Below are positions 15,379 through 20,241 of a stretch of 20,241 nt of DNA, piece after piece. Made by a program: the position numbers and the translations under genes. The DNA lies in the IMG/VR virus record IMGVR_UViG_2802429219_000017, positions 1 to 20,241 of that record; one strand, written 5' to 3'. Below the pieces are notes generated by a model. It was not told the origin of the DNA, ran no database searches, and saw nothing but the letters and a program-made list of their open reading frames with translations. How positions within the stretch are numbered: position 1 is the stretch's first letter; each line of letters starts with the position of its first letter. This stretch comes from a virus (taxonomy: Duplodnaviria; Heunggongvirae; Uroviricota; Caudoviricetes).

Positions 15379-15588
15379 AAACGATTTGCGGGAAAAGGAT
15401 AGTTAAGTAGAATTGCTGCGGGTGCTTGAGGCTATCTGTCTCAGGCATGAACACCAAAGGCAGATAGAGAAAAGCCCCAGTTAACATTACGCGTCCTGCA
15501 AGACGCTTAACATTAATCTGAGGCCAATTTCATGCTAGACACATGTAGGTTAGCCTCTTACGCGCCGAAAGGCAAGGAGAAGCAGGCT

Positions 15589-15744
15589 ATGAAGCAGCAA
15601 AAGGCGATGTTAATCGCCCTGATCGTCATCTGTTTAACCGTCATAGTGACGGCACTGGTAACGAGGAAAGACCTCTGCGAGGTACGAATCCGAACCGGGC
15701 AGACGGAGGTCGCTGTCTTCACAGCTTACGAACCTGAGGAGTAA
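15589..15744 (+). CDS. hok: Hok/Gef-family type I toxin (HokD/RelF-like, 51 aa)
   Basis: MKQQKAMLIALIVICLTVIVTALVTRKDLCEVRIRTGQTEVAVFTAYEPEE matches my memory of the Hok family. AAGGAGAAG SD. An in-frame upstream ATG at 15532 gives a mok-like leader. Confidence 0.85.
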   Translation: MKQQKAMLIALIVICLTVIVTALVTRKDLCEVRIRTGQTEVAVFTAYEPEE

Positions 15745-16288: not shown

Positions 16289-16888
16289 ATGGCACATATA
16301 CAACTGGTCAAACAAACCTCTTCCGGATTACTTCTCCCGGCGACGCCGGAGAGTTGTGATTTTCTGCATCAAATCAAAATAGGCGAGTGGATACACGCTG
16401 ATTTTAAGCGCGTTCGTAACTACGCATTCCATAAGCGTTTTTTCAAACTTCTGCAACTCGGATTCGATTACTGGACTCCGGTCGGTGGGGCGATCACTCC
16501 TCGCGAACGAAAACTGGTGTCCGGTTTCGTTGATTATCTGTGTGAATCAGTAGGCCGGGAACATACGCCAGCTCTGAGCGAAGCCGCAGAGCAATATCTG
16601 AATACAGTTGCGACACGCAGAACCCGGGATACAGCATTGCTAAAGTCGTTTGAGGCTTTCCGCGAGTGGGTAACCATTCAGGCCGGATTTTACACCGAGC
16701 ATATTTATCCGGACGGTAGCCGTGGGCGCAGGGCGAAATCCATCTCGTTTGCGAATATGGACGAAACCGAGTTTCAGCAGGTTTATAAATCTGTGCTGAA
16801 TGTACTGTGGAACTGGATCCTGTTCCGTAAATTTTCCTCTCCGGAACAAGTCGAAAATGTGGCCGCGCAGCTACTGGAGTTTGCGTAA
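16289..16888 (+). CDS. nin-region hypothetical protein (199 aa; possibly DUF1367-type)
   Basis: GGAGAAAG SD; stop overlaps the next start (TAATG). Family name is from vague memory only. Confidence 0.6.
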   Translation: MAHIQLVKQTSSGLLLPATPESCDFLHQIKIGEWIHADFKRVRNYAFHKRFFKLLQLGFDYWTPVGGAITPRERKLVSGFVDYLCESVGREHTPALSEAAEQYLNTVATRRTRDTALLKSFEAFREWVTIQAGFYTEHIYPDGSRGRRAKSISFANMDETEFQQVYKSVLNVLWNWILFRKFSSPEQVENVAAQLLEFA

Positions 16889-17178
16889 TGGTGGATTTAC
16901 GTAAAGCGGCGCGGGGGCAGATGTGCACCGTCAGAATTCCTGGCTACTGCAATCACGATCCGGAAACGTCTGTGCTGGCGCATTACAGGCTGGCGGGGAC
17001 GTGCGGAACAGCGACAAAACCACACGATATGCAGGCGGCGATTGCCTGTAACTCATGCCACGATTTAATCGACGGGAGAGTAAAAACCAGCGATTACACC
17101 AAAGAAGAATTGCGCCTGATGCATGCAGAAGGTGTTTTTCGCACACAAGAAATCTGGAGAAAGGAGGGATATTTATGA
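16888..17178 (+). CDS. YbcO-like DUF1364 protein (putative nuclease, 96 aa)
   Basis: MVDLRKAARGQMCTVRIPGYCNHDPETSVLAHYRLAGTCGTATKPHDMQAAIACNSCHDLIDGR... resembles DLP12 YbcO, including the conserved Cys/His pattern. Confidence 0.7.
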   Translation: MVDLRKAARGQMCTVRIPGYCNHDPETSVLAHYRLAGTCGTATKPHDMQAAIACNSCHDLIDGRVKTSDYTKEELRLMHAEGVFRTQEIWRKEGYL

Positions 17179-17723
17179 TTTACCCAACGAATACAGGAAA
17201 AAGCGGAGAACACCTTCGTCTCACCACGCTGGAAAGTGTCTGGATTCAGGGAAAACTACGTATGTGGGGGCGCTGGTCGTATATTGGCGGCGGCAGGTCA
17301 GGGAATATGTTTAACCAGTTGCTGGCATCCCAAAAAATGACAAAAACAGCCATCAATGAAGCCCTGCGCAGATTGAAAAAAGCGGGAATTGATAAACCAG
17401 AGTTGGAAGCATTTTTGCGAGAGATGATCAATGGTAAGCAAAAGAGCTGGCTGGCGCATTGTACTGATGCAGAGGCGTTATGTATTGATCGGGTTATAAG
17501 TGAGGTGCTGGCAGAACATCCGGGGTTGATTAGCATCCTCCGACAACGGTATGAGGGGCGGGGGATGAGTAAGCTAAAAATGGCAGAGGAGATAAATAAA
17601 ACGCACCCAGAATGGTCGCTAATTACTTGCCGGAGAAGAGTAGAACACTGGTTGACTGTGGCTGAATTCATGTTGTACCTCCCGATGAAAAATTCGTTTG
17701 GTGAAATGACAGATGGTTGGTGA
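17175..17723 (+). CDS. Putative late-gene antiterminator (Q-like, by position), 182 aa
   Basis: AAGGAGGG SD; ATGA overlap with the ybcO-like stop. Last gene before an AT-rich promoter-like region. Family not recognised with confidence. Confidence 0.5.
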   Translation: MIYPTNTGKSGEHLRLTTLESVWIQGKLRMWGRWSYIGGGRSGNMFNQLLASQKMTKTAINEALRRLKKAGIDKPELEAFLREMINGKQKSWLAHCTDAEALCIDRVISEVLAEHPGLISILRQRYEGRGMSKLKMAEEINKTHPEWSLITCRRRVEHWLTVAEFMLYLPMKNSFGEMTDGW

Positions 17724-17739
17724 AAACGAGTGAGACATA

Positions 17740-17766
17740 TTGAAGTGTGCTAAAATTATGTATAAT
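17740..17766 (+). promoter_or_regulatory. Candidate late promoter (TTGAAG ... TATAAT)
   Basis: TTGAAG (17740-17745) and a perfect TATAAT (17761-17766) with a short 15-nt spacer, in an AT-rich gap. Other -10-like hexamers lie nearby. Confidence 0.4.
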
Positions 17767-17851
17767 TTCAGTGATTTTCCAGAAGGATAGCTTAAAATTT
17801 GTTAGTACTTGGAATAATTTTTTCACATAGTATGTATGTTAAGGAGGGTAA

Positions 17852-18160
17852 ATGGTAACAAAATCAATGCATATTATTGAGATTGTTAAACTTTTCTTTC
17901 AACTTGTTAGAGATGACGAAAAAAAGTATGAGCCAGAAGTGTACGTACATACTATGCCGAAAAACGGTTTAGGCAGCATCAAGATTCATGGTCGTGGGGG
18001 ATTGGAGGTTTCTTCCTCTGAGATAAAAAAATCGCCGGAGTTTAAGGCAATGGTGGGCTATGCAAAGGAAAGAGTGAAACATGATTCATCTTTGAACGAC
18101 TTACCAAACGGGTATGAGCAACATCTGCCACACACGAAGTTTGAGGCAGAACACCGATGA
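17852..18160 (+). CDS. Hypothetical soluble protein (102 aa), first gene of the AT-rich cassette
   Basis: AAGGAGGG SD. AT-rich coding sequence. Stop overlaps the next start (ATGA). Confidence 0.6.
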   Translation: MVTKSMHIIEIVKLFFQLVRDDEKKYEPEVYVHTMPKNGLGSIKIHGRGGLEVSSSEIKKSPEFKAMVGYAKERVKHDSSLNDLPNGYEQHLPHTKFEAEHR

Positions 18161-18945
18161 TTGCTGTTTTGCTTGTGCCTCTTCTGATTAGCGGATTTAT
18201 CCTTTTGACCAAACATCCTTATCATTACTACAGGTTACACCGTTACTCTGGCCAGTTGCTTTACATGAAAGCGGCTGGCTATGGGTTTTATTGTGTCCTG
18301 ATAGCAGTAGGGAGTGCTGTCATCACTAAAGCTGTTTTTGCCGATATCCATCCGGTTATGGCGATCGCAGAGTGGGCTGATTTTACCGAGAGTGAGTCGC
18401 AAAATCGACTATGGGCTTGGTTCATTATTATATCTGTAACTTCGATTTCAATCGGCTATGTTTGGGCTTATTTAGCTAAAACTGTATATACAATTAAATT
18501 TCTCAAGGCGCTAATGGCAGAAAACGAAGGGCGTCAATCAATTGTACCGAGAGAGTTAATGAAGCATCTAAAGCTGTCAGTTATGGCTCCCTTAATGCAT
18601 GAAACCCCTATGAATTCATTGTTGTTTAACTCACTGCTTCATAAACGACATATTTTAATAACAATGGATTGTGGAAAAGTTTATGTTGGGGTGGTTTCTC
18701 GCATTACGGAACCGAACGAGACAGAGGCACCTACACAAGAAATCGCATTGACCCCGGTTATGTCTGGATATCGTAACAAGGACACTCGCAGGATATGTTT
18801 TATCAACGATTATTCTGCTCTGTCTGATGTCGATACCAATATTAACATTCCGCGCGAGAACATCACTCATGCATCGTGGTTTAATGAAGAGGTTCATAAA
18901 TCAGTAGACAATACATTCATTGGTCCGCCTGAGCCAGAGAGGTAG
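18157..18945 (+). CDS. Hypothetical membrane protein (262 aa): three N-terminal TM helices plus C-terminal soluble domain
   Basis: Translationally coupled to the preceding gene. Hydrophobic segments around residues 3-18, 42-57 and 85-107. Confidence 0.65.
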   Translation: MIAVLLVPLLISGFILLTKHPYHYYRLHRYSGQLLYMKAAGYGFYCVLIAVGSAVITKAVFADIHPVMAIAEWADFTESESQNRLWAWFIIISVTSISIGYVWAYLAKTVYTIKFLKALMAENEGRQSIVPRELMKHLKLSVMAPLMHETPMNSLLFNSLLHKRHILITMDCGKVYVGVVSRITEPNETEAPTQEIALTPVMSGYRNKDTRRICFINDYSALSDVDTNINIPRENITHASWFNEEVHKSVDNTFIGPPEPER

Positions 18946-19060
18946 TTGTTGGAGTGGCAGTATAAAACCATTGCAAAATGAGCAACAAACTGCTTTAATT
19001 CCGGTACGCTTCGCAAAGCTGTATCGCGAGGCGAACCAAGCGCAATTGAACTTTAATAGA

Positions 19061-19088
19061 ACCCGCCATCGAGCGGGTTTTGTTGTTT
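19061..19088 (+). terminator. Rho-independent terminator after the two-gene unit
   Basis: ACCCGC-CATCGA-GCGGGT followed by TTTGTTGTTT; same stem sequence as the hok terminator. Confidence 0.65.
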
Positions 19089-19164
19089 CTGGTGAACTTG
19101 GTGTTTCATCGTCAGGCGTTCAGGTAAAATTGAGCGTATTACAGATTACGTGGTTGGTGAAGGA

Positions 19165-19734
19165 ATGAAAAATCTACCCGGCGACTATTTTCTTGATGCG
19201 GATGATGACATTCTTGATTTTCTTGAAAAACAGGGAGAAGAGTGCATTCGGGAAATCCATTGCTCAAACAGCATCAACAAGGAAAATGGCTATAAATTAT
19301 TAAGCATTCTGATAGTTGGCATCGGTTCATCATTTTTACTATTAACGCAAAAAACTCATCTGGATTTTTTGGGCGCTGGACTGGCTGTTTTTGTCTTTTA
19401 CTGGTCCATTTGTGCTGTGTACCTTGTTGTTAATGTGCTGAAAGTGCATAAGCGTGCCATTATTCATGCGTCGCCAGATATTCTGTACACTCCGGCGATT
19501 AAGGGCATTACTGCGATGGATTACGCCAGGTTTAAAGAGCGAGGTTTTTCGGGGAAAGACAGCCGTTTGTCCATATTGAGAAGGTACAGATTGATGGCTT
19601 TGTGCAGAACTGCAAACGAATTATTGCAGGAAAATAAAAGACTGAGAGAAGGACTCGAGAAGGCAAGGATATCAGCTATCCTTGCCCCCGTTTATTCATT
19701 AATGGTTTCTGTTGTTATTTACTTTTTCTTCTGA
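19165..19734 (+). CDS. Hypothetical membrane protein (189 aa): two central TM helices and a hydrophobic C-terminal tail
   Basis: ATG at 19165; the track ORF starts with GTG at 19150. AT-rich. Acidic soluble N-terminus. No recognisable family. Confidence 0.55.
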   Translation: MKNLPGDYFLDADDDILDFLEKQGEECIREIHCSNSINKENGYKLLSILIVGIGSSFLLLTQKTHLDFLGAGLAVFVFYWSICAVYLVVNVLKVHKRAIIHASPDILYTPAIKGITAMDYARFKERGFSGKDSRLSILRRYRLMALCRTANELLQENKRLREGLEKARISAILAPVYSLMVSVVIYFFF

Positions 19735-19867
19735 TACCTCCCCAGGAATCACCAACGACCAATCTCTCTACGGAAAAAGGATCCTTCTTTGGTTCCTCTG
19801 TTGATTTGGGCTTTGGAGCTGACTTGGATTTGTCATTTTCATCTAATGGTTTGTTATTCTGACCCAT
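19715..19867 (-). CDS. Candidate 50-aa lysine-rich peptide, convergent with and overlapping the preceding gene
   Basis: Hand-translated: MGQNNKPLDENDKSKSAPKPKSTEEPKKDPFSVERLVVGDSWGGIRRKSK. GAGGT SD ~5 nt upstream. Overlaps the last 20 nt of 19165-19734. Confidence 0.3.
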   Translation of the reverse strand: MGQNNKPLDENDKSKSAPKPKSTEEPKKDPFSVERLVVGDSWGGIRRKSK

Positions 19868-19983
19868 TTCTTACCTCATTTGAGACATTGTTACTTTTGG
19901 CGATTTAACAATATCAAAAATCCGGGTATGTGGTGAATACAGCACTATGAATACGAGAGCAATTACCCACGCACTTTAATCTG

Positions 19984-20007
19984 AGGCTCGCTACGGCGGG
20001 CCTTTTT
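19984..20007 (+). terminator. Rho-independent terminator (8-bp stem AGGCTCGC/GCGGGCCT, UACG loop, T-run)
   Basis: Stem 19984-19991 pairs with 19996-20003 (one G-U pair), tetraloop TACG, then TTTT. Confidence 0.5.
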
Positions 20008-20145
20008 CATATCCGCGCCACGCCCGGCGCACATCAAAAACCACAGAGCCTTTCAGGGGTGAGCTTACGGGATGGTCAGTGTGACTTTCTCTGTGGGCTG
20101 GTCACCCCCCGGGCGGAGGCTCACCCACTAAAAGGAAAAGTCACG

Positions 20146-20241
20146 ATGTTTGGTATTTTCAAAAAGAAAACCCGCAAGGCCATTACTGAAGTAAAGAAAA
20201 TGGAGAACCGCGATGCAGTGGAGGCGACCGTCTGGGGCGCG
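20146..20241 (+). CDS. Partial CDS (N-terminal 32 codons), truncated by the window end
   Basis: AAGGAAAAG SD before the ATG at 20146; MFGIFKKKTRKAITEVKKMENRDAVEATVWGA...; not recognised. Confidence 0.4.
   Translation, partial: MFGIFKKKTRKAITEVKKMENRDAVEATVWGA

Follow-up and report, generated by a model that had tools for sequence, protein, structure and literature searches.

A probable late-gene regulatory cassette of DUF1133-type Q antiterminators in lambdoid prophages of Escherichia coli

We analyzed a 20,241-nt stretch of DNA (hereafter, the window), which is a lambdoid prophage of Escherichia coli, and focused on the structured segment between its 262-aa and 189-aa cargo genes. This segment is most probably the late-gene regulatory cassette, PR′–QBE–SDPE–tR′, of a DUF1133 (Q21-related) antiterminator, in which a late promoter (PR′) is combined with a Q-binding element (QBE), a sigma-dependent pause element (SDPE) and an intrinsic terminator (tR′). 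It is a known kind of element, but one belonging to a Q family whose site has no prior description. We infer the promoter activity, the pausing and the Q-dependent read-through of the element, as well as its partnership with the DUF1133 Q protein, from sequence comparison. A full-text literature search for the sequence of the element returned nothing, and transcript, start-site or binding data for it were not found in the literature searched.

Results

Prophage setting

The features of the region are listed in Table 1. The prophage appears to be integrated beside the ryeA/sdsR locus. Full-length Rfam matches to SraC/RyeA on the minus strand and to SdsR/RyeB on the plus strand lie at 463–607, and are adjoined by a 358-aa minus-strand ORF at 735–1811 that encodes a putative integrase. 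The RalA antitoxin sRNA (full-length, 2169–2347, 214 bits) and the sok antitoxin RNA (15420–15594, 117 bits, with hokD annotated alongside in relatives) were also matched by Rfam models, and thus the prophage carries two toxin-antitoxin modules with RNA antitoxins. No Pfam or PADLOC match was obtained for the cargo genes, that is, the 102/262-aa pair and the 189-aa gene. Further downstream, a second terminator-like hairpin (19983–20004) is followed by a GC-rich leader of ~140 nt running up to the TerB gene (19983–20146 as a whole), which folds with a long-range helix, GGGGTGAGC/GCTCACCC, at a z-score of only −2.2. The stretch before the TerB gene is found directly 3′ of tR′ in the metagenome loci L507 and L521. 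A megablast search with 17700–20241 retrieved 1296 genomes, and most of the matches listed span only 19985–20241 (query 2286–2542).

Table 1. Features of the window around the predicted regulatory cassette
Feature	Position	Strand	Remarks
DUF1367 gene	16289–16888		upstream of YbcO
YbcO gene	16888–17178		
Q-like antiterminator gene	17175–17723	+	DUF1133, 182 aa; longest ORF from 17055
Cargo insert	17724–18960	+	AT-rich leader, 102-aa gene, 262-aa gene
102-aa cargo gene	17852–18160	+	
262-aa cargo gene	18157–18945	+	PHROG 3630, function unknown
−35, TTGCAA	18971–18976	+	only TTG kept
Upstream Q-binding subsite (QBE), AATGAGCA	18977–18984	+	predicted
Second subsite position, ACAAACTG	18985–18992	+	family consensus AnAAACTG
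−10, TTTAAT	18994–18999	+	TTCAAT, TTGAAT, TTAAAT in relatives
SDPE, TACGCT	19005–19010	+	predicted; predicted start A19006
Short terminated leader RNA	19006–19088	+	predicted from promoter and terminator positions; ~78–83 nt
5′ leader hairpin	19007–19033	+	8-bp stem, 11-nt loop AAAGCTGTATC
Intrinsic terminator (tR′ equivalent)	19054–19089	+	13-pair stem, GC core, T-run
189-aa cargo gene	19165–19734	+	PHROG 11870, function unknown; 3′ of terminator
TerB-family gene, start only	20147–20241	+	window ends inside gene

Structure and coding capacity of the segment

The local stem and the clean terminator (19061–19088) claimed in the initial annotation are both present. The stem is formed by CGCTTCGC (19007–19014) with GCGAGGCG (19026–19033) through eight pairs, one of them G-U, across an 11-nt loop. 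The terminator scan returned a stem at 19054–19085 with a GC core, CCCGC/GCGGG, at 19062–19066/19073–19077, followed by TTTTGTTGTTTC to 19089. RNA folding of 18946–19092 and of 19006–19089 yielded exactly these two hairpins, which make up both the MFE and the centroid structure (z = −3.5; 0 of 200 shuffles as stable).

The view that the segment holds no convincing ORF is borne out by our results. Only one ORF of 50 aa or more overlaps it, a TTG-started 82-aa frame (18920–19168), which has no Pfam match and could not be conserved because the sequence on either side of the conserved block varies among genomes; a coding region was therefore ruled out. We also rejected a tRNA remnant, since ARAGORN detects no tRNA in the window and, in the relatives that carry tRNAs, these are located downstream of the conserved block. 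A covariance-model search, proposed as a check in the initial annotation and carried out here with Rfam, brought no family to its gathering threshold on the segment: the best score was that of STnc370 (24.4 bits versus 54), the amino-acid-operon leader families scored 14–18 bits against thresholds of 41–55, and all of these scores rest on the terminator.

Predicted promoter, subsites and pause element

The initial annotation reported no convincing promoter, and the generic promoter scan did not list one. However, a conserved −35 (TTG) and a TG-extended −10 of the form TTyAAT, 17 bp apart, stand directly upstream of the stem and within the interval covered by that annotation. Following the second subsite position, the sequence continues with C, TTTAAT (18994–18999), TCCGG and TACGCT (19005–19010), and the final TG of ACAAACTG constitutes the extended −10 motif (TGn before the −10). 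The −10 carries T at its position 2, where A is nearly universal, which accounts for its being missed by the generic scan; the tet promoter of pBR322 has the same hexamer, TTTAAT. Given this −10, transcription is predicted to start at about A19006, so that the terminated RNA would be ~78–83 nt long. In relatives, the −10 is conserved in position and in the form yTnAAT, with TGn before it, and every true copy picked only by the leader 16-mer has a TTG separated from the −10 by 17 bp.

The annotated genome of phage 21 was used for comparison. Its late promoter region consists of the −35 TTGACA, QBEu (ATTGAGCA), QBEd (AATGAGCA), a −10 overlapping the end of QBEd, and the start site; 12 bp after QBEd comes the SDPE, TAAGCTG, and then a terminator, two tRNAs and the lysis genes. 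The QBE half-site of phage 21 is TGAGCA (PMC6606751). The 8-mer predicted as the upstream subsite in the window is identical to phage 21 QBEd and is placed at the offset of QBEu (SDPE−28 to SDPE−21). The second subsite position, which is conserved whatever the Q allele, falls at the offset of QBEd (SDPE−20 to SDPE−13). The TAnGCT at the start site matches phage 21 in both sequence and spacing, and the Sakai Sp10 copy reads TAAGCT, as does the phage 21 SDPE. A first candidate for the pause element, AAAGCT at +10 to +15, was dropped because TAnGCT at the start site proved invariant in distant relatives. The whole architecture was expressed as a pattern (TTG, 16–18 bp, yTnAA(T/C), 4–6 bp, TAnGCT(T/C)(C/G)G), which has a single match in the window, at 18971–19013.

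The DUF1133 protein as a Q antiterminator

The product of the gene at 17175–17723 matches Pfam DUF1133 with E = 5e-106, the Phage_antitermQ family PF06530 with 29.4 bits (cut-off 26) and PHROG 753, annotated as "anti-termination protein Q-like", with E = 3e-79. In a single-sequence search it is barely detectable as a relative of Q21 (E = 3e-4), and a profile of seven family members matches the 21Q structures 6P18 and 6JNX with E = 8e-8. Q21 contacts DNA through two helices, by S93/K94 in one and by T125/R127/R128 in the other, the recognition helix (PMC6606751). The S-K and T-C-R-R of the window protein align with these two sets of residues, and its recognition helix reads SLITCRRRVEHW. DUF1133 has also been assigned as a Q antiterminator by published HHpred analysis (PMC8136144). 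Judging from these matches, the DUF1133 protein is a Q antiterminator and a distant homologue of Q21.

Conservation of the element and covariation of subsite and recognition helix

The element was examined in two sets of loci chosen through the Q protein: 80 from IMG/VR, picked only by similarity of that protein, and 80 from metagenomes, for which a profile of distant Q relatives (51–79% identity) was used. The conserved block is present downstream of Q in 78 of the 80 IMG/VR loci, the other two running out of sequence. It starts no more than 25 nt from the Q stop codon in 67 of these 78 loci and 850–1264 nt away, behind cargo, in the remaining 11. The full architecture was found at the Q stop codon in 77/80 metagenome loci, and TAnGCT occurs in 77/80 loci of each Q-picked set. 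Among copies that match the pattern, the pause element is TA(T/C/G/A)GCT in every case; in a set picked by a 16-mer that lacks the pause element, 114 of 118 copies have TA ahead of the leader. The leader 16-mer stays the same even between loci whose Q proteins share only 46–50% identity. Scans of genome contigs with the 16-mer, and of viral contigs with an AT-rich pattern, gave almost only chance matches.

Pooling of the sets gave 277 copies with 163 distinct sequences, and the Q recognition helix was found upstream in 157 of the latter. Across these 157 distinct copies, seven classes of recognition helix pair with seven non-overlapping classes of subsite (Table 2). The Q gene abuts the element in 135 of them, and the pairing also survives the insertion of cargo in 22, the window among them. 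In the window itself, the TCRRR helix and the AATGAGCA subsite still belong to the same class in spite of the 1.25 kb between them. The helix lies only ~140 bp from the subsite in most copies, and co-inheritance alone could therefore produce the association. Against pure co-inheritance, the same pairing is seen in phage 21 (helix TCRRE, half-site TGAGCA), whose Q is barely recognizable as a relative.

Table 2. Recognition-helix classes and their subsites
Helix	Distinct copies	Subsite
TCRRR	78	nnTGAGCn; ACTGATCA in 4 copies
TCEKR	41	TyTTACGy
TCRNR	18	TTTT(A/G)(G/C)C(C/A)
TCERR	11	TTTGACGT; GTTGTCGC in one copy
TCCSR	5	TTTTGCAC
TCESR	3	nnTTGCGC
TCKNR	1	TTTTGCCC

The predicted leader RNA

Three types of leader were distinguished: type A, that of the window, reads ACGCTTCGC-AAAGCTGTATC-GCGAGGCG, type B AGGCTCGG-GACGTTAAAGCGAA-CTGAGC, and type C ATGCTTCGC-ACGATTGCATCC-GCAAGCA. 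Comparative folding, the second check proposed in the initial annotation, recovered the 5′ hairpin in all three types, extending from +2/+3 to +26/+28; the GCT of the pause element opens its 5′ arm. When the mixed leader types were aligned with MAFFT, RNAalifold found no consensus structure because the stems fall in different columns, and pair conservation was counted by a custom script instead. Counted inward from the G3 pair, pairs 0–5 are canonical in 77–100% of the 71 distinct leaders compared, and between leader types U-A is exchanged for C-G and C-G for G-U. These compensatory changes represent few independent events, and thus they lend moderate support to an RNA-level constraint on the hairpin. 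At the other end, a hairpin with a T-run is found in 139 of 141 distinct downstream stretches and ends 44–90 nt (median 75) from the predicted start. The terminators of relatives are built from several unrelated stems, so that the terminator is kept and its sequence is not.

The hairpin cannot form before the polymerase has passed about +40, and a role in the pause is therefore unlikely. It may instead protect the leader and the long late mRNA at their 5′ end, or function in trans. For the DUF1133 Q family, we hold it doubtful that the leader RNA acts in trans or that the hairpin takes part in Q loading or in stabilization of the late mRNA. By analogy, the ~80-nt RNA is predicted to be a terminated late leader, like StxS or the lambda 6S RNA. 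The 6S RNA of lambda is 194 nt long.

A different reading of the segment is that it is the gene of a trans-acting small regulatory RNA, which, with its 5′ hairpin, single-stranded linker and U-tailed terminator, pairs with host or phage mRNAs in the manner of StxS; the conservation would then be due to that role. We consider this unlikely, although it is compatible with the PR′ reading because StxS itself is a PR′ leader. The conservation of +2 to +31 goes beyond the needs of a 6-nt pause element, the hairpin is maintained via compensatory changes across the leader types, the length is held within the above range, and a terminator with a U-tail is the usual Hfq-binding module; moreover, PR′ leaders acting as sRNAs have a precedent (PMC7547250). 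On the other hand, no Rfam family scores above threshold, and the linker between hairpin and terminator, the usual place of a seed, is the least conserved part. The element is also absent from the list of orphan Hfq peaks in Sakai, which is weak evidence because peaks less than 100 nt from a feature were excluded from that list and the element lies within this distance. What stands of the small RNA suggested in the initial annotation is a predicted, discrete plus-strand RNA of ~80 nt, rather than a free-standing sRNA gene.

Two known prophage RNAs invite comparison. StxS (EcOnc15) is a PR′-derived sRNA of Stx phages, which is located directly after Q and tracks the Q phylogeny; it is 74 nt long, is released by RNase E from a leader of 258 nt, and has been shown to bind Hfq and to have targets (PMC7547250). 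Like StxS, the RNA predicted here would be a short product of a late transcript terminating just 3′ of PR′. Its sequence is unrelated to that of StxS. HnrS (EcOnc10-12), an sRNA of 66 nt, is encoded in multiple copies by prophages of EHEC/EPEC (PMC13502914), and our element resembles it in being multicopy and prophage-borne, in having an intrinsic terminator and in its similar size. Identity with HnrS/EcOnc10-12 was ruled out by the different place in the prophage and the different strand: the EcOnc10 peak of Sakai Sp12 lies between genes for an Rz-type endopeptidase and a DNase/terminase on the strand opposite the late genes, whereas our element lies between Q and the tRNAs.

Distribution and genomic context

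Far more often than by chance, BLAST detected the segment: it occurs at 2690 places in 1834 of 5426 complete E. coli genomes, and its conserved core spans 18987–19035. Its neighbors differ from strain to strain. In strain A30, the 102/262-aa cargo precedes the element and tRNA-Arg/Thr/Gly follow it; in ETEC4090, it lies directly after the DUF1133 gene and before tRNA-Thr/Gly; in U90, an ORF6N gene is found before it and the 189-aa gene after it. In CM2010-0578/1, the DUF1133 stop codon is on one side of the element and the holin-endolysin genes are on the other; in O157:H7, the element lies between DUF1133 and tRNA-Ile/Arg, followed by TerB, esterase and lysis genes. The element is thus the constant part of a variable region, with a cargo slot on each side, 3′ of DUF1133 and 5′ of the late genes.

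The slot after the terminator contains tRNA-Arg/Thr/Gly or tRNA-Ile/Arg in L001, L002, L246 and L580. In the window it is filled by the 189-aa gene, versions of which (53–66% identical) occupy the same slot in other loci. The TerB gene, at which the window ends, is in relatives the first conserved gene of the downstream block that leads into the lysis genes; the annotated order in L001–L003 is TerB, DUF3927, holin, endolysin. Holin and endolysin genes also lie downstream in L245 and L580. Placement of tRNAs directly 3′ of the late terminator is seen in phage 21 (L004) and in many DUF1133-type prophages. Unless such tRNAs are served by separate promoters, Q read-through would be needed for their expression. 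L002 has promoter-like hexamers within an AT-rich stretch (2620–2800) ahead of its tRNAs.

Since tRNA genes follow the element in many relatives, it could be proposed that the segment is the promoter and leader of a tRNA cluster, or else a conserved linker that serves as the crossover point for cargo exchange, as a constant block between two variable slots is the pattern expected of a recombination joint. We regard both as very improbable. The terminator always stands between the promoter and the tRNAs, and many copies have no tRNAs, with lysis genes (L245) or other cargo (the window, L003) in their place. In a passive linker, neither the constant distances among −35, −10, SDPE and terminator nor the matching of subsite variants to variants of the Q helix would be expected.

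Cargo between Q and the element

In the window, Q lies ~1.25 kb from the element on the same strand, with the two-gene cargo (~1.2 kb) between them. There is a 4-nt overlap between the 102-aa and 262-aa genes, and the pair is common only to the window and L001 (E. coli A30) among the loci examined. In the AT-rich leader ahead of the pair, TTGAAG...TATAAT is found at ~17740–17770. In L245, the Q stop codon marks the beginning of the homology to 18961–19100. Cargo-free loci align with the window from ~18961, the place of their Q stop codon and upstream of the −35, and therefore the cargo was inserted beside a pre-existing element. From these alignments, the 102/262-aa pair with its leader is an insertion between Q and PR′ that replaced the last few Q codons.

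The other possibility raised in the initial annotation, that the segment is merely the 3′ UTR and terminator of the 102/262-aa cargo with no function of its own, is scarcely credible: the segment does directly follow the 262-aa stop codon (18945), and its terminator would stop cargo transcripts, but 135/157 distinct copies abut Q, the element is present without this cargo almost everywhere else, and the cargo-free homology indicates that the cargo came next to an existing element.

A different arrangement was observed in L003 (2110–2240) and L086, in which an unrelated second promoter-leader-terminator module (TTGACT-N17-TATATT) directly follows the Q stop codon, in the order Q, second module, ORF6N gene, element.

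Discussion

Proposed mechanism of the cassette

If the segment is the PR′–QBE–SDPE–tR′ cassette, host σ70 RNA polymerase would start at about A19006 from TTGCAA-N17-(TG)nTTTAAT. Region 2 of sigma would then re-bind the −10-like TACGCT (19005–19010), with a pause ~15 nt downstream. Without Q, the polymerase would resume and terminate at 19054–19089, releasing an RNA of ~80 nt with a 5′ hairpin. The DUF1133 Q, made from the early operon, would bind AATGAGCA (18977–18984) in the promoter spacer and load onto the paused polymerase, which would then read through tR′ and later terminators into the 189-aa and TerB genes and on into those for lysis and morphogenesis.

Several observations count against the cassette. 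The −10 has the unusual T at position 2, only TTG of the −35 is kept, and the helix-subsite association could stem from close linkage. The second subsite position does not vary with the Q allele, and only a single TGAGCA is present. In the window, Q is located 1.25 kb upstream, and the window ends before the lysis genes. Lastly, the second module after Q in L003 and L086 may be a rival target for the Q of these loci.

Comparison with phage 21 and lambda

The closest parallel to the proposed cassette is phage 21. Both have a −35, two 8-bp positions, a 12-bp gap and an SDPE of the form TA(A)GCT in the same order and spacing; both combine the half-site TGAGCA with a T-C-R-R helix, and their Q proteins are homologous. 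In both, an intrinsic terminator follows, and then (in relatives of the window) tRNAs and lysis genes. The two also differ in a number of respects. One TGAGCA subsite is present here, versus two direct repeats in phage 21, and the second position is instead the allele-independent AnAAACTG. The −35 abuts the subsite here, whereas 2 bp lie between them in phage 21, and the −10, which overlaps QBEd in phage 21, here falls within the 12-bp gap. At ~80 nt, the predicted leader is longer than that of phage 21 (~50 nt), and it has an extra conserved 5′ hairpin. The protein here belongs to Pfam DUF1133, and cargo separates Q from its site in the window.

In lambda, a constitutive late promoter with a QBE between its −35 and −10, a −10-like pause element where the transcript begins and a near terminator lead to a short RNA in lysogens (PMC6606751; bioRxiv 10.1101/651190). 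The control logic of this PR′/qut/tR′/6S system is the same as that proposed for our element. In contrast, Q-lambda belongs to an unrelated family, its QBE and pause element (AACGAT) are different, and it needs a −35-like element.

Significance

Q antitermination is a textbook switch, and yet its DNA sites are defined for very few phages, of which lambda, 21 and 82 can be named. The Q proteins of the DUF1133 family are still annotated as "protein of unknown function", although prophages of E. coli, those of O157:H7 among them, commonly encode them. The placing of promoter, subsite, pause element and terminator provides an annotation rule for thousands of prophages, and it accounts for the insertion points of cargo and tRNAs on either side of the switch. 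The seven natural protein-DNA pairs offer material for testing how Q21-type proteins read DNA; conceivably, though with low probability, these pairs constitute a natural code by which antiterminators of the Q21 type recognize their sites. If the proposed reading is true, about one-third of E. coli genomes would constitutively make a leader RNA of ~75–80 nt, and our results point to an abundant, unstudied short RNA that lysogens are predicted to make all the time.
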